NCBI GenBank assembly: GCA_022823865.1
Contig: JAJEHF010000002.1
Coordinates: 34,731-98,730 of the forward strand
Length of the DNA stretch: 64,000 nucleotides
Direction of reading: 5' to 3'
Source: Bryobacterales bacterium
GTDB taxonomy: Bacteria > Acidobacteriota > Terriglobia > Bryobacterales > UBA6623
In this document: positions 44,048 to 64,000 of the stretch, piece by piece
Layout of the letters: the number at the start of each line of letters is the position of its first letter
Position numbering within the stretch: position 1 is the stretch's first letter
Position numbers and translations under genes: made by a program
Notes under the pieces: model-generated
Seen by the model: the letters and a program-made list of their open reading frames with translations, nothing else
Database searches by the model: none
What the model was told of the DNA's origin: nothing

Positions 44048-44875
44048 CTAGCCGGCGTTGTCGAGCGGCGGCAACGCGTGCCGCTGGCGGCCGCGCGAAA
44101 CCTCGGCGAGAAGCTCCAGCAGATCTGAGGTCACCTTGCCGTTGGTGGCCACGATACGCAGGTCGCCCGGACGATAGCGGTTGCGGTCGAAGTCGCAGTA
44201 TTCCCCGCCTGCCTCGGAGAGCAGCACCAGCCCTGCGGCCACGTCCCACGATTTCAGCCCGATCTCCCAGAACCCCTCTAAGTGGCCCGCGGCCACCGCG
44301 CACAAGTCCAGCGCCGCCGAGCCGGTTCGCCGGACGCCGTGAGTGGCCATGGCCACCTGGTGAAAGTAGTGCGTGTTCGGGTTGGTCGCACGGATGGAGC
44401 TCGGAAAGCCTGTCGCGAACAAGCTTCGCCCGAGGTCTCCCTCGTCTGACACGCGGATACGGTGGCTGTTCAGATACGCGCCGGATCCCCGCTCGGCTGC
44501 GTACATGTCGCCGCGCACTGGATCGAAGATGACACCCGCCAGACCCTCCCGGCGGGACCACAGGCCGATGCTTACGCAGAAGCGCGGCAGACCGTGGGCG
44601 AAGTTGGTCGTTCCGTCCAACGGGTCCACGTGCCAGATCAACTCGCCGGCCCCCTCGAAGTTGCCACCCTCCTCAGCTACGATCGAGTGGCTTGGGAAAC
44701 GCGAGCGGATGCGTTCGACAACGAGACGCTCGGATGCCCGGTCAGCGGCCGTTACGGTATCGAAGCTGCCCTTGTGCTCGACCTGCACGTTGCCGTAGTG
44801 GCGCATTAGGACGGCGCCGGCCTCCCGTGCAAGCTCCGCGGCGAACGGAATGTAGTCCGGAGCGGCGAAGGGCAC
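44048..44875 (-). CDS. inositol monophosphatase family protein (SuhB-like)
   Basis: IVAEEGG and WHVDPLDGTTNFAHG motifs, plus the C-terminal WDVAAG. Confidence 0.9.
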   Translation of the reverse strand: MPFAAPDYIPFAAELAREAGAVLMRHYGNVQVEHKGSFDTVTAADRASERLVVERIRSRFPSHSIVAEEGGNFEGAGELIWHVDPLDGTTNFAHGLPRFCVSIGLWSRREGLAGVIFDPVRGDMYAAERGSGAYLNSHRIRVSDEGDLGRSLFATGFPSSIRATNPNTHYFHQVAMATHGVRRTGSAALDLCAVAAGHLEGFWEIGLKSWDVAAGLVLLSEAGGEYCDFDRNRYRPGDLRIVATNGKVTSDLLELLAEVSRGRQRHALPPLDNAG

Positions 44876-44928: not shown

Positions 44929-46050
44929 CTACGGGCCGGGCCGGACTATCGGAGCCTTGCGAGTTCCCGAGCGCCGGGGCGGCCTCGTGACGGGTTCAGC
45001 GGGTTCCTCATTTTCCTCGTCCGCGACCCCCACTTGGGGCACGGTGCGCAAGCGGACCGGAGCTCCGATGCGGCTACGGCGGGCCGGCCGCTCCACGGGA
45101 CTCTTGGCGAAATACCCGCTGCGGGCCAGGACGACAGCACCCTCGCGAGCGACGCGCACCTCGACCTTGCGGAAGTCATCCGCCGGATTGAAGCCGTCGT
45201 CCGCAGGATAGAAGCCGAGCAAGTATTGCGTCCGCAGATTGACCAGCACCTCGTCGAACGCGGCATCCAAATCTCGGGCGCCGTACTGGACAAACGCTTC
45301 GCCCCCCGTGTGTTTCGCCAAGGTGATCAGGGCATGCTCCCCGCCCCGGTTCCGTCCGGCATCGCTCCGGATCGGCAGCACGATCAGAGGGTATATCGCG
45401 GCCTCGGCGGCATGGGCCGCGCGCAGCGCGTCATCAAAGTTGAGACCGCTAGTGGTGTCGCCGCCGTCGGTAATGATGACGATGACAGGGCGGCCGTCGC
45501 GCTGCTGCAGATACTGGGACGCGAGCAGGACCGCGTCATAGACCGACGTGCCGGTCTGCGGCCGAACCCGCCCCAAGGCGGCCGCAAGCTCTTTCTGGCT
45601 GCGAGTGAAATCGGCGAGGACCGTGACGTCAGCGGAAAAGGAAAGGACGGCAGCGGCATCGCCCGGCTGTGAGCCGGACCCCAGCAGTCTCTCCAAGAAG
45701 CGGCCCGCGGACTCCCTCTCGTAACGCAGCTCCACCGCCGTGCTCAGGCTTGCATCCACAAGCAAGACAACCGAAAGTGGCCTGTCAGTTCTCCGCTCGA
45801 ACACAGTGATTTCGCGCTGCTCGTCGGATTCGAGAATCTGGAAGTCCTCGCGCTGCAGGTCGCCGACTGGAGCGCCGCGAGCGTCCTTGACGGTTACAGG
45901 CAGGGACACCAGACGAACGTCTGCCGTAAACACGGCGGGCTCGATTTGCAGCGCCGTTGCGCAGGCGGCGATTGCGAGCGAGCCGAAGATCAGCCTGTGC
46001 CCGCCGCCGAGTACCTGGCTACCGAAGCGTCCCACTGGCCTTCTACCCAC
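44929..46050 (-). CDS. secreted VWA-domain protein (VWFA-related acidobacterial-type N-terminal domain)
   Basis: FTADVRLVSLPVTVKDARGAPVGDLQREDFQILESDEQREI, followed by the MIDAS-type LLVDASLST. The GTG 46050 start overlaps the moaDE 3' end by 61 nt, so the start is uncertain (alternative GTG 46035). Confidence 0.8.
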   Translation of the reverse strand: MGRRPVGRFGSQVLGGGHRLIFGSLAIAACATALQIEPAVFTADVRLVSLPVTVKDARGAPVGDLQREDFQILESDEQREITVFERRTDRPLSVVLLVDASLSTAVELRYERESAGRFLERLLGSGSQPGDAAAVLSFSADVTVLADFTRSQKELAAALGRVRPQTGTSVYDAVLLASQYLQQRDGRPVIVIITDGGDTTSGLNFDDALRAAHAAEAAIYPLIVLPIRSDAGRNRGGEHALITLAKHTGGEAFVQYGARDLDAAFDEVLVNLRTQYLLGFYPADDGFNPADDFRKVEVRVAREGAVVLARSGYFAKSPVERPARRSRIGAPVRLRTVPQVGVADEENEEPAEPVTRPPRRSGTRKAPIVRPGP

Positions 46051-46718
46051 ACCTCACCATCAGCGAAGTGTTCCTTCTTCCAGACCGGCACCTTGCTCTT
46101 GACTTCGTTGATCGCGGACAAGCTGGCCTCGTACGCCGGCTTGCGGTGCGCCGAAGCGACCACGATCGAGACACTGGCCTCGCGCACCTCGAGCCGGCCC
46201 ACCCGATGCACCAACGCAATAGCATGCACGTCCGAGCGGTCCACGATGTCGCGTCCTATCTCCTCGAGCTGGCGCAGGGCCAACGGCACGTAGCACTCGT
46301 AGTCGAGGTACACCGTCCGCCGGCCTCGGGTGTTGTCCCGCACGACGCCTTCGAACACCAACACTGCGCCATCGCCGTCACCCTGCACCCGCCTAGCCAG
46401 CGCGGCGCTGTCGATTGGCGCTCGCGTAATCGCGGCGAACACGCCGTCGCGTTCGGCGCTCGCAATCCACTCAGAACCGCCGCTCACCGGCGGCATGATC
46501 GCGACCTCGTCACCATCTTCGACGGCTTCACTGGCCGGAGCGAACCGCTGGTTGCGCGCCATCGCCACGCTGCCGGCCATTTCCCCGAGCCTGGGGTGTT
46601 GAGACGCATAGTGCTGGAATACCGTTTCGAGGCATGCGCCGCACTCAAACTCGGCCTCGTCCGACGAGCAGCCAACTAAGTCTTTGAGTTGGCCGAAGAA
46701 GAGCACGCGGACTTTCAT
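45990..46718 (-). CDS. fused molybdopterin synthase MoaD-MoaE (MoaX-like)
   Basis: ATG 46718 inside ORF 45990..46745. Residues 1-81 form a MoaD/ThiS fold ending ...IMPPVSGG. The frame continues directly into MoaE (VFEGVVRDNTRGR ... SAHRKPAYEA...PVWKKE). Confidence 0.85.
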   Translation of the reverse strand: MKVRVLFFGQLKDLVGCSSDEAEFECGACLETVFQHYASQHPRLGEMAGSVAMARNQRFAPASEAVEDGDEVAIMPPVSGGSEWIASAERDGVFAAITRAPIDSAALARRVQGDGDGAVLVFEGVVRDNTRGRRTVYLDYECYVPLALRQLEEIGRDIVDRSDVHAIALVHRVGRLEVREASVSIVVASAHRKPAYEASLSAINEVKSKVPVWKKEHFADGEVWVEGQWDASVARYSAAGTG

Positions 46719-47299
46719 GCCACTCTCCATTCTTGCAAGACCCACGCCCTTCCGCAGACACCGCTAGCAAGGACGGGCCGCATTGGATGTTTGGGACCGA
46801 TAGCGTGCAGGCGCAGATCCGAGGTTCGGGAGTCGTGTGCAAGGACGGCGATTGCCCGAGCCGCCAAGGTGAGCGAGATCACTGTGACCGCGCATGAGAA
46901 CTCGTGCGGTGGGATGAGAACAGCACTGTTTGGGAGCAGGCACACCGCCAGCCATGGCGGCCCGTGTGCCGAGCGCCCGCGTCTTGGCGGACAGTCTAGA
47001 TCGAGGCGTCTGGCGCAAGACACGCACTCCAAGAGGCAGTGGTAGGGGTGGGAAACGAGTGAGAAGACAGACAGGTGTCTGGGGCGGAAACGCTTCTCTT
47101 GGCAAACCTGGAAATCGGCGGGCGGCTGACCCTCATTGCCCTTCATCTGTACAGTGCCACCATCTGGCAAGACGTGCCCCAGGCACACGGGCTCGATATG
47201 TCAGAGGGAGAGTGAGGGCAGATGCTGAGCACAGACCGTTCCAAGCCGCCGCCCGCCTACACGGTCGACGCGGGAACAGGATGAAGGACGCGCACGCCT

Positions 47300-53904: not shown

Positions 53905-54723
53905 ATGGCCGCTCCCGGCGCACTCTTGGATGCCCGCACCGACCCGGCTGCGGAACAACCGGTGGAATACCCCTACTCCGACGGCAAGGTCCTGATGGAG
54001 ACGGACCCGCATGCGCGGTCCATCATCGATATGCGCGACCAGCTGGACACGCATTTCAAGGCCCGGCAAGACGCCTATGTGGCCGGCAGCATGGCGCTGT
54101 ACTACCGCCAAGGCGACCCCGCGGCCGTGGTGGCGCCGGACGTGTTCGTGGTGCTGGGCGCTGCGCACAAGCAGGCGCGCAAGTCGTATCTGCTCTGGGA
54201 GGAGGGCGGCGTGGTGCCGAGCTTCGTGGTGGAGGTGGCATCGATGTCCACGAGCCGTCGCGACGCGACCAGCAAGCGCGCGACGTACGAGCGGATGGGG
54301 GTGCACGAATACTGGCGCTTCGACCCGCTGGGCGAGCTGATCGCGGGGCGGCTGGAGGGCTGGCGGCTAGCGGGTGGCCGCTACGAGCGGGTGCGGGCTG
54401 TGCGAGCGGGCGGCTGGCACCGCAGCGAGGCGCTGGGGCTGGAGCTGCGGGCCGAGCGCTGGCTGCTGCGCTTCCATGATCCACGGCTGGGGCGGGACAT
54501 GCTGACGCACGCAGAAGCCGTGCAGGAGCGAGACGAGGCGGTGCGGGAGCGAGACGCAGCAGTACGGCAACGCGACGAGACGATGAGCGAACGCGACGAG
54601 GTGGCGCGCGAGCACGACGGAGCAGTGCGCGAGCGAGACAAAGCGGTGCGGGAGCGCGACGAAGCGAATCAACGGATCCGCGAATTGGAAGCGCGACTGC
54701 GGTTGTCCGACAAGTCCGCCTAG
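53905..54723 (+). CDS. Uma2 (DUF820) family endonuclease-like protein with C-terminal heptad-repeat tail
   Basis: Core pattern ...PDVFVV...PSFVVEVAS...KRATYERMGVHEYWRFDP is typical of Uma2. The tail consists of (V/A)RERD-type heptads. Confidence 0.8.
   Translation: MAAPGALLDARTDPAAEQPVEYPYSDGKVLMETDPHARSIIDMRDQLDTHFKARQDAYVAGSMALYYRQGDPAAVVAPDVFVVLGAAHKQARKSYLLWEEGGVVPSFVVEVASMSTSRRDATSKRATYERMGVHEYWRFDPLGELIAGRLEGWRLAGGRYERVRAVRAGGWHRSEALGLELRAERWLLRFHDPRLGRDMLTHAEAVQERDEAVRERDAAVRQRDETMSERDEVAREHDGAVRERDKAVRERDEANQRIRELEARLRLSDKSA
54520..54666. repeat. seven tandem 21-bp coding repeats
   Basis: Units such as gtgcaggagcgagacgaggcg / gtgcgggagcgagacgcagca ... gtgcgggagcgcgacgaagcg. They encode VxERDxA heptads. 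Confidence 0.9.
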
Positions 54724-58112: not shown

Positions 58113-59408
58113 CTAGCCCGGAACGGCGAGCCGTTCGGCCGCGAAGGCCAGCGCCTGCTCGCGGTCCGTGAGCACGCCTTCGTGCTGCAGCTCGCGCACC
58201 TCGGCGAGAACCTTGCCGAAGACAGGGCCGGGCTCATACCCTGCGGCAATTAGATCCCGGCCCGTCAGCAGCGGGACAAACGGCTCTTCCGCCTGGACTT
58301 GCTCGAAGTGCCGCGCAGCAAAGTCGTGGTTGTCCAGCAGGCCGTGGCTGGAAAGGCAATCGAGCCTGTGCAGCTCCAGGTGATCCTCGAAGTCCGGCTG
58401 TTCGACGAAGCTCCGCAGCTTGGAACGGCGCATGTCCTGCACGTGCGCGAACTTCATGTGATTAGCCACCAGCGCCAATACGTGCTGTCTCATGGCGTTG
58501 GAAAACCGCAGCCGCTTGCAGATTGCCTCCGCAAGCTCGACGCCGCGCCCGACATGCCCGTGAAAGCGGATGCGGTCCGCCCGTGTGAACGTCTCGGGCT
58601 TGCCCACGTCGTGCAACAGGACCCCCCACGCCAATGCCAGCGAAGGCCGTCGCAGCCCCTCCAGCATCAGCATCGTGTGGGTCCACACGTCGCCCTCGGG
58701 ATGGTACTGGGGCGGCTGCTCAACGCCCCTGAGGGCTGCGACCTCCGGCAGCAACTGCTCCAGCAGCCCGCTTTCGCGCAACAGCTCGAATCCGCGCCGC
58801 GCGCTTCCCTCGGTCAAGATTCGGCCCAGCTCGTCGCGCACCCGCTCCGCCGCCACGGCCCGCAGGGCGGCGGCGTTATCGCGGATCGCCGCCATCGTGC
58901 CGGCCTCGATCTCGAACCCTAGGCTGGCAGCCAGCCGCACGGCGCGCAGCATCCGCAGGTGGTCTTCGCGGAAGCGCTCTTCGGCCGAACCGACAGCCCG
59001 GATCAACCGGCTCTCGAGATCGGCCGCTCCTCCAGTGAAGTCCAGGCGCTGCTTCGAAACCGGGTCGTAGAACAGGGCGTTGACCGTGAAGTCGCGCCGA
59101 ATCGCATCTTCCTCGGGATCCTTGCTGTAGGACACCTTGTCAGGCCGGCGGCCATCGCTGTAGGGGCCCTCGCGGCGAAACGTCGCCACTTCTGTGAATC
59201 CGTCGTCGCCACGGACGTGCACCACGCCGAAGCGCTGGCCGACGCGACGCGCGCCCTTGAACAGTCGAACGACCTGGTCCGGCCGGGCGTCCGTCGCCAC
59301 GTCGCGGTCCTTGATCGGGCGCCCCAGCAGCTCGTCGCGCACGCAGCCGCCCACCCAGTAGGCCTTGTAGCCGTTGGATTGGAGCCGTTGGATGACGTGC
59401 AGCGACAT
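58113..59408 (-). CDS. cca: CCA-adding tRNA nucleotidyltransferase with HD domain
   Basis: YWVGGCVRDELLGRPIKDRDVAT head domain, RDFTVNAL, and the C-terminal HD (LLHDVGK). Confidence 0.9.
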   Translation of the reverse strand: MSLHVIQRLQSNGYKAYWVGGCVRDELLGRPIKDRDVATDARPDQVVRLFKGARRVGQRFGVVHVRGDDGFTEVATFRREGPYSDGRRPDKVSYSKDPEEDAIRRDFTVNALFYDPVSKQRLDFTGGAADLESRLIRAVGSAEERFREDHLRMLRAVRLAASLGFEIEAGTMAAIRDNAAALRAVAAERVRDELGRILTEGSARRGFELLRESGLLEQLLPEVAALRGVEQPPQYHPEGDVWTHTMLMLEGLRRPSLALAWGVLLHDVGKPETFTRADRIRFHGHVGRGVELAEAICKRLRFSNAMRQHVLALVANHMKFAHVQDMRRSKLRSFVEQPDFEDHLELHRLDCLSSHGLLDNHDFAARHFEQVQAEEPFVPLLTGRDLIAAGYEPGPVFGKVLAEVRELQHEGVLTDREQALAFAAERLAVPG

Positions 59409-59440
59409 GTCTCTGCAACCCCAAGCCCAGCCCGGCGAGG

Positions 59441-60520
59441 CTACAGCTTCGGTCGGTAGCCCGCGCGCGTGCGGACACGGTAGCGCTGCTGGCCAGGGCC
59501 CACGAGTTCGACCTGGATGCTGCGCCAGCCGCGATTGGGGTTCGCCTCGGGGTAGTACGTCACCGTGTAGGAGCTGGCCAGCTCGTCGCGGATTTCGACG
59601 AACGCCTCGGACTGGCGCTGCCAGGTCTTGGCGAAGTAGGCCTTGCCGCCCGTGCGCTGCGTGATCCTTCGAAAGGCGTTGCTCGAGATCGGGTCGCGAT
59701 TGAGCGCGCGCGTGCTGATGACATAGATGGGCACTCCCTCGTCCTCGGCGATAGCGCCGACATCGTCCGGAGAGACCGCGCTGGCGTTGTCGGGGCCGTT
59801 GGAGAACACGATGATGACCTTGCGCCCCGACACCCTGGCCGCATCCCGCAGCGTCAGCAAGAGGCAGTTGTACAGGGCCGTCTCGTCTCCCGCCACGGAG
59901 CTGCGCAAGCCGCGCAAGGCGTCATCGTGGTCCGCCGACAAGTTGGCATGCCTGGTCAGGTTGCGGCTGAACGAGTACACCGCGACCGAGTCCGCGCCGT
60001 CGAGTCCGCGGATGAAGTCCGCGATGGCGTCCTCGGCGTAGACCAAGCTGCGGTACATGAAATTGCTGGTGTCGAAGAGCACGAATACGTTCGTGCCGAC
60101 CAACTGGCCCGCGATCGCTTCGGGAATCGAGAGCTCGGCCTCGCCAGCGACCGGCCCGGGGCGCACGCCGGTCCTGGTGATGCGCCGAGGGGCGACGTTG
60201 CCCTCGCCGAACGATGCGATCGTCTGCTGGACGCCGTCCTCGGTGATCCGGAAGTCCTCCGGTGTCAAGCCCTGTATGTAACGACCGCGCGGGTCCGTGA
60301 CTGCGATGTTTAGCATGACGAGGTCGACCTCGACCTCGAATAGGGCCGCCGGTTCGCCGAGTGCCTCCGGCACCTGCCCGCGCAGGCCGGGCACTGCCTG
60401 CCACATGCCCAGCAAGGTTGCGGCGGCAGTGGCCAGCCGCAGGCCGGCGCTGGGCCCCGCTCGATTTAGCCTGCAATCGCTCATTTTCTTAGTATCAGCT
60501 TCGCACCTTGGAACCTGCAT
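59441..60520 (-). CDS. secreted VWA-domain protein (VWFA-related acidobacterial-type), second copy
   Basis: LFEVEVDLVMLNIAVTDPRGRYIQGLTPEDFRITEDGVQQTI, followed by VLFDTSNFM. ATG 60520 forms an ATGA overlap with the stop of the upstream 1137-aa gene (alternative ATG 60484). Confidence 0.8.
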   Translation of the reverse strand: MQVPRCEADTKKMSDCRLNRAGPSAGLRLATAAATLLGMWQAVPGLRGQVPEALGEPAALFEVEVDLVMLNIAVTDPRGRYIQGLTPEDFRITEDGVQQTIASFGEGNVAPRRITRTGVRPGPVAGEAELSIPEAIAGQLVGTNVFVLFDTSNFMYRSLVYAEDAIADFIRGLDGADSVAVYSFSRNLTRHANLSADHDDALRGLRSSVAGDETALYNCLLLTLRDAARVSGRKVIIVFSNGPDNASAVSPDDVGAIAEDEGVPIYVISTRALNRDPISSNAFRRITQRTGGKAYFAKTWQRQSEAFVEIRDELASSYTVTYYPEANPNRGWRSIQVELVGPGQQRYRVRTRAGYRPKL

Positions 60521-63500
60521 CAATCGCCCCGGGGAGTCCCTGCGGACGATGCGCTAGCGGCACTGCTGGGGCCGCTCTCCTGGCGCACTTGGTCGGCGAT
60601 GATCCGCAACGAGCGCCACAGGGCCGGCCAGTCGTCCAGATGCGTGGCGAAGATGCGCTCCAGCGTGCGCTGCGTCCACTGGGGGATCAGCAGGTTGAGT
60701 TGCGCCGGAGCGATGTGCAATTCGTCAGACAGCGCGGCCCAGAACAGGTTGTTGGACTCCCAGCTCTCCGCGAGAATGCGGCTCGAGAACCCCATCAACG
60801 TAGGAAACAGCGGCAGGTGCAGCAGCTCTAGGCGATAGGAGTGCGCCAGGCGCGGGTGCGGCATCCCGAACATCTGACCAGTCTGGCGTTCGTTGTGGCG
60901 TTGCGGGTCCCGGCTCTCCAGCTCCGCGATGGCCGCGACATATGGCCGCCCCAGCGACTCCAGTCGCTCGCCGTGGGACTCGCGCAGCCGACACGCCAGA
61001 TCGAAGAGTTCGGCCGGGGTGACGATCTCGATTCCCTCCCGCACGCGCCCGCGCCTGAATGCGTCTTCGATCTTCCAGATGCGGGACGGCTCCACCCGCG
61101 TCCGCAGTTGGCCCAAGACGGGCCCGGCCAAGTCTTCGTCAAGAGCAGCCTGGGCGAGCAGGGAACGCGACAGCCGCAGGTGCAGCCCCACGTAGTGCAG
61201 GTCGGCGGGGCGGACGCCCCACCAGCGCGGCAGGGTGGCGCCAAGCAACATCTGCGGCGCCAGGTCCTGCCATATCAGGGCCTGCCGGTTGGATGGGACC
61301 AAGAAGTTCTGCTCTGCCGACGCCAGTTCGTAAGGCAGCGAGACGAGCGAGCCCATCAGGCGGCCGCCGCCGCTGCTGGGCCAGCCGGTCGACTGCATTC
61401 GAGCCCGCGACCAGCTGTACTTGCTCTCAGGACCGAGGAAGTCGTGGCTGCGCACGAACAAGGGGTTGGCACGGATCAGTTCGGCCCCGGGCGGCGAATA
61501 CAGCGCGTACGCGATGCCGACCAGCGAGTCGCGCAGTATCGGCGCCAGTTCCCCGCGAATCGAGAGCAGGCGCCTGGGATTGCCCTGCGCCCGATCCACC
61601 GCACGCCGCAGGTTGAGGTTTCGCTGCCCCTGGATGTGGCGGTCGACCCAGTGGCCGCGCGCCATGGCGTTGGCCTCTTCGACGGATAGCACGGACCGCG
61701 GAAGCCGGATGTCCGAAATGCTCTCCGAGAGGCGGTTGGCCATGGCCACGTTGAACGCCTCGCCGCGCGAGACGCGCTCGAGGTGGTCGGCTAGGTCGAA
61801 CAACGTGTCCAGCGGCACCAGCCGTTGCAGAACCAGGAGCTGGTTCACGCGGGCCAGCACCTCGCTCCGCGCCTCCTGCTCGCCGTCGGCGGCCTCGCCC
61901 ACTAACAGGTCCAGCAACGCCTCCTGCGGATCGGCAGCGTCTCGCCCGGCTGCTTCCAGCAGCGCCAGCACGCCGGCGCGCCCCGCTTCGAACACCCCCT
62001 GCGAATCGGTCGCGCCCGAGGTGGCCGAGAGCAGGGCCTGCATCGACGAATCGGCCCGTTCCGGCGGAATCGCGCCGTTCCGGCGCAGCACTTGCCACAG
62101 CGCAAGTTGCGCTTGCAGGACGCCGATGGAGTTGGCGCGACGCAGGACATTGCCGATCTTGTCCAGGCGCGCCATCGTGTCCAAGTGCGCGGCGATGGTT
62201 GCCTCGGCGAGATTGGGAGAGTCGCTGTAGAGGGCGAACTGGTGTCCGTGGTCCGGGAATGCCCGAATCATCCGCGCGACGGTGTCGGCCGATAGAGGCG
62301 TGGCGCGGTTGCGATCCAAGTCCGAGATCGCCAGGAACATGCGCAGCGGCTCGTTCTCGATCGCCTTGCGCGAGAGAGCGAACATGGCCTCGATGACATC
62401 GTCGGCCTGCGTCCAGCGCGTGGCGGACTCGGTCAGCTTGCCGTCGTATTTGCCGTGCGGGTGAACGACGAACAAATCCCTCCACGGCCCGATGCCGCCG
62501 GGTATGCGCGGAGCGCCCGAAGCTTCAAAGTCGAGCCTCGTCGCCAGCAGCATCAAGTCGGAACTGGCACGAAAGATCGGGCGCGCGGGGCCCGGGCTTG
62601 TGACCTTCCCCCGCACTGCCTGATAGAAGCGCTCGATGCGCGGCGGATCGAGGAAGTAGGCCTTCGCGGCGTCCCCTTGGACGCGCGCCAAAGCGTCATA
62701 GAACGCCGCCATCCAGCCATCGTCCAGACGGATAAGCCGCTGGAAGAACTGGCCCCCCTGATTTACGCGCTCGCCCACCAGACGTTCCCAGCCGGGCCGC
62801 GCACGCGCGCCCCCCGGAGTGACCGCGACACCGTCGGCGACCTCGAACATCGCCCCGAAGAAGTCGAGCACGGGGACATAGTCCTTCAAGTCGCCGATCG
62901 GAGCGGCGGCCCGCAAGGCCTCGGCGGTCGGACGGTGCAGGTTTTGCATTGCGACGTACAGCCGCGCCAAGCCCGGATCGTCGATAAACGTGTCCAGGAA
63001 GTTGTCTTGGGCGCGTCTGGCCCCTGCCAGCCAGTAGTCCCGGCCGAAGAGGACCGGCAGTCTCGTAGGGCCGAACTGGTAGCTGAACGGCTCGCCCCGG
63101 CGGAATGCCAGTTCCAAGTCCGCCAGCGGGAAGGCCGAATCGATGGCGAGAAACGCCCGCGAGGGGTTGACCGTCTCGAGCACGGCTGCCGGGCCGCACG
63201 CCCCGCGCAAGCGGTAGCCGATGATCTTCAGCAGCTGCGCCGTCTCGGCCGATTCGCAAACCGCGATGCTGATGGTGTTGTCGGCCCCAGCGAACGTCGC
63301 GAGTTCCCTCGCTTGGGTCAAGTACTGCTTCAGCAGGCGGAGATACTCGGTCGGCTCGAACGTGGCGCCACCGCCGGAGGCATGGTAGCCGCCGGCGAAA
63401 ATCGTCCGGCCAAGCGACGGCAGGATGAGATCGGGAGAGAGATCGGTGGACAGCGCCGCCATCCGGCTGAACGAGTCCAGCGTGCCGGGCACCTCGATGA

Positions 63501-63933
63501 AATCGGTAGCTTCCGGCGTGGTCAGCGGTTGCAGCAGCCTGTCAACCCCGGGGCTGCCTTCGCCCGCTGCTTGCAACGCCGCCAAGGCGGCCTTGGCCTG
63601 CTCCGCATTGCCGTGCGACAGGGCGGCGACCGCGATCCGGCGGCGCAGCTCGGCAGCCGTCGCGGAATCTTCGGGATCGACCGACGCAAGCGCCGCCAAA
63701 TAGGCCTCGACAGCGGCCGGGTCGCCGTAGCGATCTAAGAAGTCCGCTCTCGCCAACAGCGCTTCGCCATTGCCCTGCTGGTCCCTCACGGTATCTTGGA
63801 GCACGCGCCGCGCCTCGAGGGGCTGGCCCGCCCGTTCCAGTTCACGCGCCTGCTCGACGTTGGCGTCGAGCGAGCTTGGGCAGAGAGCGCTGACGAAGAC
63901 TGCGGCTGCTAGGGGAGCGATCCAAGTGCGCAT
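60520..63933 (-). CDS. large secreted hypothetical protein (1137 aa), no domain recognised
   Basis: ATG 63933 inside ORF 60520..63981 gives signal MRTWIAPLAAAVFVSALCPSS. There is a short TPR-like N-terminus; the remainder is mostly helical with no motif I can name. Confidence 0.7.
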   Translation of the reverse strand: MRTWIAPLAAAVFVSALCPSSLDANVEQARELERAGQPLEARRVLQDTVRDQQGNGEALLARADFLDRYGDPAAVEAYLAALASVDPEDSATAAELRRRIAVAALSHGNAEQAKAALAALQAAGEGSPGVDRLLQPLTTPEATDFIEVPGTLDSFSRMAALSTDLSPDLILPSLGRTIFAGGYHASGGGATFEPTEYLRLLKQYLTQARELATFAGADNTISIAVCESAETAQLLKIIGYRLRGACGPAAVLETVNPSRAFLAIDSAFPLADLELAFRRGEPFSYQFGPTRLPVLFGRDYWLAGARRAQDNFLDTFIDDPGLARLYVAMQNLHRPTAEALRAAAPIGDLKDYVPVLDFFGAMFEVADGVAVTPGGARARPGWERLVGERVNQGGQFFQRLIRLDDGWMAAFYDALARVQGDAAKAYFLDPPRIERFYQAVRGKVTSPGPARPIFRASSDLMLLATRLDFEASGAPRIPGGIGPWRDLFVVHPHGKYDGKLTESATRWTQADDVIEAMFALSRKAIENEPLRMFLAISDLDRNRATPLSADTVARMIRAFPDHGHQFALYSDSPNLAEATIAAHLDTMARLDKIGNVLRRANSIGVLQAQLALWQVLRRNGAIPPERADSSMQALLSATSGATDSQGVFEAGRAGVLALLEAAGRDAADPQEALLDLLVGEAADGEQEARSEVLARVNQLLVLQRLVPLDTLFDLADHLERVSRGEAFNVAMANRLSESISDIRLPRSVLSVEEANAMARGHWVDRHIQGQRNLNLRRAVDRAQGNPRRLLSIRGELAPILRDSLVGIAYALYSPPGAELIRANPLFVRSHDFLGPESKYSWSRARMQSTGWPSSGGGRLMGSLVSLPYELASAEQNFLVPSNRQALIWQDLAPQMLLGATLPRWWGVRPADLHYVGLHLRLSRSLLAQAALDEDLAGPVLGQLRTRVEPSRIWKIEDAFRRGRVREGIEIVTPAELFDLACRLRESHGERLESLGRPYVAAIAELESRDPQRHNERQTGQMFGMPHPRLAHSYRLELLHLPLFPTLMGFSSRILAESWESNNLFWAALSDELHIAPAQLNLLIPQWTQRTLERIFATHLDDWPALWRSLRIIADQVRQESGPSSAASASSAGTPRGD

Positions 63934-64000
63934 ACCTGATTCCCGAGAGTGATTGTACACCGGCACCGGATGGGGCGGCACGGGCGTGCAATCTCTGGAA

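Follow-up and report, generated by a model that had tools for sequence, protein, structure and literature searches.

A conserved gene pair of the Bryobacterales encodes a large exported protein of no recognised family and a von Willebrand factor A protein with a degenerate metal site

We describe a pair of adjacent minus-strand genes in a 64,000-nucleotide stretch of a Bryobacterales genome (assembly GCA_022823865.1, contig JAJEHF010000002.1; the whole stretch is called the window here, and coordinates count from its first nucleotide). The upstream gene encodes a protein of 1137 amino acids (aa) which, as far as the databases tested here can place it, belongs to no known family and matches no solved fold, and the gene directly downstream encodes a von Willebrand factor A (VWA) protein of the TIGR03436 type in which the site for adhesion dependent on a metal ion (MIDAS) is degenerate. 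Both proteins carry export signals, and the linkage between their genes is strict and reciprocal. We give an even chance to the reading that the pair is a self-contained operon, found throughout the order Bryobacterales, for a two-subunit extracytoplasmic complex whose large member adopts a new fold.

The principal features of the pair are as follows.

60520..63933, minus strand: large gene, an open reading frame (ORF) of 1137 codons plus TGA; exported product of ~125 kDa, pI 5.9
59441..60523, minus strand: VWA partner gene, counted from TTG 60523, with its stop codon at 59441-59443

A strictly linked gene pair

The neighbourhood counts given here cover the best 80 of at least 556 matches from a scan of one genome per species; these 80 loci all lie in metagenome-assembled genomes (MAGs) labelled Bryobacterales, Bryobacteraceae, Solibacteraceae, Paludibaculum, Bryobacter or more broadly (Terriglobia, Acidobacteriaceae, Acidobacteria). 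A TIGR03436-type VWA gene lies directly downstream of the large gene, on the same strand, in all 78 informative loci, the remaining two contigs stopping too early. The next gene encodes a VWA protein of 337-382 aa in three of three distant full-length relatives (33-41% identity) as well, and these distant partners keep the hallmarks of the subgroup, with TIGR03436 scores of 141-153 bits. When the search was reversed for two VWA orthologues (4 loci), each was preceded by a domainless gene of 1128-1132 aa. The supposition of the initial annotation that a giant partner is conserved together with the VWA gene thus holds in every comparison made.

No further neighbour is conserved throughout the 80 loci, and the pair therefore appears as an autonomous two-gene module. 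Clustering of the flanking ORFs returned unrelated housekeeping genes, the most frequent being a CCA-adding enzyme (23 loci), a protein with tetratricopeptide repeats (TPR) and CarboxypepD_reg (22) and a pyridoxal phosphate-dependent decarboxylase (20), followed by UvrC, Lgt, a sulfatase, a TonB-dependent outer-membrane protein and a Cas10-palm-like protein in 8-13 loci each. Several of the closest relatives (87-96% identity; L002, L003, L004 and L012) are MAGs titled SB06xx_bin and RHO3_bin, names that we take to resemble those of sponge-microbiome bins. The more distant family members come from MAGs of soil, peat, groundwater and lake, and this spread of sources indicates that the pair is not bound to a single habitat.

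The large protein: export, family assignment and fold

The minus-strand ORF of the large gene spans 60520..63981 and would yield 1153 aa from a GTG codon, or the 1137-aa form used here from ATG 63933. Homologues of its product fill more than 1312 clusters at 90% identity, nearly all of 1090-1180 aa, and length is steady at about 1120-1145 aa; no genome occurs twice among the best 80 loci. Not one of these clusters has a functional name, a single source label reads 'tetratricopeptide (TPR) repeat protein', and a Pfam match to TPR is present in only two of them. The parts of the protein are listed below.

63862..63933, minus strand: signal-peptide-like N-terminus, residues 1-24, MRTWIAPLAAAVFVSALCPSSLDA, the top Kyte-Doolittle window of the protein
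63532..63873, minus strand: TPR-like helical head, residues ~21-134, from a sub-threshold TPR_19 match and Foldseek
63034..63525, minus strand: alpha/beta domain, residues ~137-300, with eight short strands, from the secondary structure in both models
60559..63033, minus strand: almost all-helical, non-repetitive body, residues 301-1125, with one beta-hairpin at 845-860, from the AlphaFold2 model
61234..61383, minus strand: conserved block, residues 851-900, WPSSGGGRL...AEQNFLVP.NRQALIWQDLAPQ, conservation 0.79-0.85 at a predicted local distance difference test score (pLDDT) of 50-73
60604..60873, minus strand: residues 1021-1110, FGMPHP...PLFPT.MG.SSRILAESWES...IFATHLDDWPALW, conserved blocks of reduced confidence
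Residues 1126-1137: C-terminal tail, variable and of low complexity

By the Kyte-Doolittle scale the only hydrophobic segment is the N-terminus MRTWIAPLAAAVFVSALCPSSLDA, and the remainder of the protein is soluble. Export was called by a crude hydrophobicity criterion, a basic n-region followed by a hydrophobic stretch, and under it a signal-like N-terminus is present in 76 of 82 homologues of the large protein and in 109 of 119 VWA orthologues; among the large proteins the actual sequence of this segment varies. In some members a Cys lies close to where the signal peptide ends, but the lipobox is not conserved, and we rejected a lipoprotein assignment. The window protein ends in an RGD tripeptide (60523-60531, minus strand), which is found in one of the 82 sequences, lies in the variable low-complexity tail and is very likely a chance occurrence.

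In the family searches the head of the protein gave the only signal, and this stayed below threshold. In Pfam, TPR_19 matched residues 35-100 below threshold (18.3 bits against a cutoff of 25), as did TPR_14 (14.3 against 23.5), and NCBIfam gave TPR-type noise only; Pfam and NCBIfam searches of 37 diverse members, together with PADLOC on the two proteins of the window, again returned sub-threshold TPR matches only. DUF6057, DUF7017 and BcsQ were dismissed as families for the protein, their matches being at noise level in 3-4 members. A sequence-profile search of the PDB found designed TPRs only (E>=0.04). With the full-length model as query, Foldseek found no match in the PDB at E<=1e-3; the matches were to the TPR head and reached a probability of 1.0 to designed TPRs, SycD and PcrH over ~115 columns (TMt 0.55-0.78). 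A sub-model of residues 136-545, predicted separately and with confidence (pLDDT 91), matched no PDB fold (best E=0.6), a Foldseek search of BFVD yielded nothing beyond the TPR head, and the top fold 'matches', to membrane proteins and tape-measure proteins, had TM scores <=0.1 and are meaningless. Thus neither Pfam, NCBIfam and PADLOC nor the sequences and structures of the PDB contain a significant match to residues 137-1125. These results uphold the initial annotation on its description of a signal peptide, a short TPR-like head and some 1000 further residues without a family, and the structural search that it had proposed, Foldseek on an AlphaFold model, adds no PDB fold besides the head.

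The head makes up ~10% of the protein, and in the model its residues 21-134 fold like an array of 3-4 TPRs, as in BcsC, PgaA and PrsT, periplasmic adaptors of export machines, and in the chaperones SycD and PcrH. BcsC, PgaA and PrsT also gave weak sequence matches, all far under their cutoffs. The likeness is limited to the head, whereas the protein as a whole lacks a beta-barrel and a lipobox. Within the mature protein only the C-terminal tail of 12 residues is less conserved than the head, and in two members, P0125 (1047 aa) and P0128 (1051 aa), the head is absent altogether, a short linker joining the signal peptide to the next domain; we therefore consider the head accessory.

AlphaFold2, run with an alignment of 82 sequences, modelled the large protein with a pLDDT of 85 and a predicted TM score of 0.84, and the model is accordingly a single compact body. 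Comparison of segments of the helical body with hhalign detected no internal repeats (all probabilities <=1.1%). Across a diverse set spanning 33-81% identity there are ~100 invariant columns, among which Trp, Arg, Glu, Asp and His are frequent; the protein has 19 Trp, many invariant, and conserved motifs include RSHDF, GWPNSGGGR, AEQNF and AESWES. The alpha/beta domain accounts for 21 invariant columns, among them C226, and C246 is retained in >=90% of the diverse set and invariant in the closer set of 82; the two cysteines probably form a disulfide.

Conservation and model confidence diverge in the C-terminal part. Residues 851-900, 1021-1060 and 1091-1110 combine conservation of 0.71-0.94 with a pLDDT of 49-74, the lowest confidence in the body, and residues 1061-1090, between the two C-terminal blocks, are modelled confidently. 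Of the 10-residue blocks with pLDDT <75, that of residues 1051-1060 is conserved most strongly, and residues 1041-1060 are the most conserved 20-residue block of the entire protein. In the model such blocks would fit elements that become ordered upon binding of a partner or ligand, and residues 851-900 are a candidate functional or partner-binding site.

A VWA partner with a degenerate metal site

The identification of the neighbour as a TIGR03436-type VWA protein was confirmed by two profiles: PF00092 matches residues 144-302 (E=2.7e-10, 41.2 bits against a cutoff of 23.8), and TIGR03436 matches over profile positions 3-322 of 324 (152 bits against 81.25). The sole hydrophobic segment of the protein is its signal-like N-terminus, and flanking transmembrane helices are absent. 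Three positions of the metal site, numbered for a 359-aa form of the protein, are central.

60059..60073, minus strand: first MIDAS loop, DTSNF instead of DxSxS, residues 150-154
59879-59881, minus strand: MIDAS Thr, T214; among 76 orthologues T (42), A (22) or S (12)
59798..59800, minus strand: N241 (in FSNGPDNAS) where the (S/T)DG loop would have its MIDAS Asp; Asn in all 76 orthologues

In a tally of 76 VWA orthologues, D150 and S152 are present in every sequence, and position 154, that of the second MIDAS Ser, is occupied by F in 43 and Y in 33 and by Ser in none. Profile alignment places DTSNF onto DTSGS of PDB 8s05_A, and N241 onto the Asp of LLSDG/LLTDG in PDB 4rck and 8s05 and of ITDGGD in a paralogue from the same window (see below). 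The VWA partner therefore lacks a complete MIDAS (DxSxS, Thr and the Asp of (S/T)DG): all 76 orthologues have other residues at two of the five positions, and in 22 of them the Thr has become Ala. Because the site is degenerate in every orthologue, the metal-dependent capture through MIDAS that the initial annotation had envisaged is disfavoured. In the same loci the VWA protein is more conserved than the large protein (~60% against ~47% identity), and since the replacements are invariant or aromatic, the surface seems to be remodelled yet constrained; read most simply from the alignments, the remodelled MIDAS face would be a fixed protein-protein interface. VWA domains that lack a MIDAS, for example A1 and A3 of von Willebrand factor, bind protein ligands without metal. 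As in A1 and A3, the VWA fold is kept and metal residues are lost here, which suggests metal-independent protein binding, but there is no specific sequence relationship to these domains and the binding of a ligand by the partner VWA is our inference.

The partner belongs to the TIGR03436 family (acidobact_VWFA), whose VWA proteins are specific to Acidobacteria, by its full-length match above cutoff and shares with a canonical member an N-terminal beta-rich region, the VWA core and a 'YxxxYYP...R.R.GY' tail. It differs in being divergent (141-153 bits in its orthogroup against 212 for the canonical member), in its degenerate MIDAS and in a variable insert of ~30 residues before the VWA core. 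It also occurs once per locus and always after the large gene, whereas the family overall is known for paralogue expansion. Our literature search found no paper that mentions TIGR03436; the Solibacter genome paper names VWA paralogues merely as too divergent to analyse (PMC3174227).

The canonical member is a second TIGR03436 gene of the same window (44929-46050, minus strand; 212 bits), 26% identical to the partner VWA, with an intact MIDAS (DASLS...T...TDGGD). It has no giant neighbour and lies between a gene for a fusion of MoaD(ThiS) and MoaE (45990-46745) and an inositol monophosphatase gene (44048-44875). Since a single divergent orthogroup is paired with a large gene, and the canonical paralogue is not, the pair says little about TIGR03436 proteins in general, and the hope that a giant partner would give a handle on the whole class was not realised.

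Gene junction and upstream element

On the coding strand the junction reads ...GGC GAT TGA TGC AGG, with the stop codon TGA of the large gene at 60522-60520. Bases 60523-60520 are thus TTGA, and not the ATGA on which the initial annotation had based translational coupling. The TTGATG junction offers three starts for the VWA gene: TTG 60523, which overlaps the stop codon by two bases within TTGA; ATG 60520, which gives 359 aa with a one-base overlap (TGATG); and ATG 60484, which gives 347 aa after a gap of 35 nt. Across 76 orthologous loci an overlap of start and stop is confined to the nearest relatives L001, L003 and L006; in L002, L004 and L005 the first ATG lies 3 nt past the stop, and candidate gaps in the other loci are mostly 3-55 nt. 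The ATG at +35/+36 is retained in six of six close relatives, gives an n-region of the length seen in orthologues and is the start of the 347-aa proteins in the NCBI annotation of close VWA orthologues, all of which makes ATG 60484 the more likely start. As the overlap is not conserved and the downstream start is likelier, coupling by overlap finds no support; the wider proposal of an operon survives, for the sequence comparison confirms a tight same-strand arrangement of the two genes.

A short promoter-like element precedes the large gene.

63952..63959, minus strand: TGTACAAT, -10-like (TACAAT) and partly palindromic (TGTACA), ending 18 nt before ATG 63933

This octamer is present in a single copy in the 64-kb window. 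Among 77 loci it occurs within 50 nt of the start in 18, and GTACAAT in 20, compared with 0.06 expected; the spacing to the start is mostly 16-20 nt, the flanking sequence has diverged, and the loci concerned are L001-L020, L034 and L041. In other clades TACAAT lies farther from the large gene, 60-87 nt upstream. From this distribution TGTACAAT is probably the promoter or operator of the pair, and since the GTG-extended ORF would contain it, ATG 63933 is supported as the true start of the large gene. A scan of 59000-64000 for consensus sigma-70 promoters and terminators gave nothing above chance, and no Rfam family (riboswitch or leader RNA) was detected in the equivalent upstream region of L001.

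Interpretation of the pair

In the reading that we favour, the two genes would make up a self-contained operon with its own promoter-like element, conserved across the Bryobacterales (Acidobacteriota), and both products would be exported through the Sec pathway and act jointly as a stable complex in the periplasm or cell envelope. The large protein would be the functional core, a ligand-binding or catalytic body with a previously undescribed fold, and its TPR-like head an optional adaptor. The VWA protein would be a dedicated subunit whose former metal face, remodelled by N241 and the aromatic residue at position 154, is probably metal-independent and probably docks on the conserved, low-confidence C-terminal blocks of the large protein. 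The pattern of conservation points to a housekeeping function in the envelope and not to a variable adhesin.

Several considerations weigh against this reading. Conserved gene order is a sign of co-expression or of a shared pathway and not of physical binding; the D, S, N and T/S side chains left at the former MIDAS could hold a metal weakly; localisation was called by the crude hydrophobicity criterion and not by a trained signal-peptide predictor; and conserved loops may be modelled at low pLDDT for other reasons, for instance because a substrate gates them or because they face a membrane.

The first of these considerations leads to an alternative that we regard as rather unlikely, namely that the genes are co-transcribed and no complex is formed, the large protein being a stand-alone periplasmic enzyme or binding protein (acting, for example, on an envelope or extracellular polymer) and the VWA protein a separate component of the same pathway. 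The many polar and aromatic positions that never vary in the large protein, including Trp and the motifs RSHDF, GWPNSGGGR, AEQNF and AESWES, would suit an active or ligand-binding site, and gene order by itself is no proof of binding. Yet the two genes are linked without exception and in both directions, even across deep divergence. The VWA protein is the more conserved of the two and its MIDAS face is specifically remodelled, for both of which a fixed protein partner is the simplest explanation, and neither an enzyme family nor an enzyme fold was detected in the large protein.

We consider it unlikely by a wider measure that the VWA protein serves adhesion or capture through its MIDAS, that the giant is its partner in adhesion or matrix assembly and that the pair reports on the TIGR03436 class as a whole. 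Systems for adhesion and matrix formation often include VWA and TPR modules, and the apparent export of both proteins and the conservation of the pair agree with such a role. The replacements at the second MIDAS Ser, the Asp and, in part, the Thr speak against it, as does the canonical TIGR03436 paralogue in the window that has no giant partner. The large protein, moreover, is non-repetitive, constant in length, highly conserved and single-copy among the loci listed, which is unlike typical adhesins, and we regard the adhesion or matrix role put forward at the outset as conceivable but unlikely.

It is very improbable that the pair is a Bat-like system (Bacteroides aerotolerance, MoxR-associated) of VWA and TPR envelope proteins in reduced form. 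The combination of a VWA protein and a TPR-containing envelope protein is a Bat theme, an envelope VWA gene beside the gene of a TPR protein being found in Bat/BatI-like clusters (MoxR ATPase, DUF58, the VWA proteins BatA/BatB, the TPR proteins BatC/BatE, and BatD), whose function is poorly understood and for which a role in envelope integrity has been proposed (PMC5700661). NCBIfam also gave weak matches to Leptospira BatA of 19-27 bits, but with the VWA partner the BatA model (NF047508) reaches 19.2 bits against a cutoff of 380. Bat VWA proteins keep DXSXS, T and TDG, whereas the partner VWA has neither a functional-looking MIDAS nor transmembrane anchors; ~1000 residues of the large protein are without a Bat counterpart, and the TPR head is missing in some members. 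None of MoxR ATPase, DUF58, BatD and SH3 was present among the window neighbours or the annotated conserved neighbour clusters of the 80 loci.

Mg- and Co-chelatase large subunits (about 1200-1400 aa) work with VWA-containing subunits, and it could be supposed that the hydrophobic segments at the N-termini do not direct export and that the pair is a cytoplasmic, for example chelatase-like, assembly of giant and VWA protein. The likeness is superficial, although the canonical paralogue has a weak match to a cobaltochelatase subunit, and we hold this scarcely credible: signal-like N-termini are kept in form, not in sequence, in both families, the Cys pair is conserved (C226 invariant, C246 nearly so), and the chelatase analogy itself is rejected because of these export signals, the absence of an AAA+ partner gene and the lack of any significant Foldseek match to solved structures.

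Neighbouring and other genes of the window

The pair is surrounded in the window by genes for a CCA-adding enzyme, DoxX, a xylose-isomerase-like protein and a tannase. The CCA-adding enzyme/poly(A) polymerase-family gene (58113-59408, minus strand; PolyA_pol head, RNA-binding and HD domains) begins 32 nt past the VWA stop codon on the same strand, with no terminator predicted in between. The same arrangement is found in 23 of the 80 loci, which form the clade nearest to the window, and in this clade the CCA gene may be co-transcribed with the pair. In one clade (L042:6783-8249 and 8 further loci) the gene directly downstream of the VWA gene encodes a protein of ~487 aa with matches to the Cas10/Cmr2 palm-2 and Csm1 domain-B models; no other CRISPR genes were noted, and this could be a cyclase- or polymerase-palm protein that acts alone.

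Beside the canonical VWA paralogue, the ORF at 45990-46745 (minus strand) joins a ThiS/MoaD-like region (residues 14-90) to MoaE (residues 106-217), a fusion of the small and large subunits of molybdopterin synthase, and at its 3' end it shares ~60 nt with the region annotated as the start of the paralogue. A putative restriction endonuclease of the Uma2 family (53905-54723, plus strand) carries a C-terminal extension of ~90 residues with a weak, probably spurious GAGA_bind match.

Significance

Soils, peat and sponges harbour abundant Bryobacterales, a poorly understood group. An exported protein of 125 kDa with constant length and ~100 invariant residues must matter for their cell envelope, and it is hypothetical or unnamed in every database that we checked; when we call it new, we mean that no database tested here places it. 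The expansion of TIGR03436 proteins in general is not explained by the pair. In its most far-reaching form, which is possible but doubtful, our interpretation would make the pair a new order-wide envelope machine specific to the Bryobacterales, in which an enzyme or ligand handler of ~1000 residues and new fold needs a VWA protein whose metal site has turned into a docking surface. In that form the pair would represent a new kind of VWA-dependent extracytoplasmic complex. The partner would offer a natural example of a VWA domain with a repurposed metal site, and the strict pairing of the two genes provides a testable entry point to the function of the large protein.

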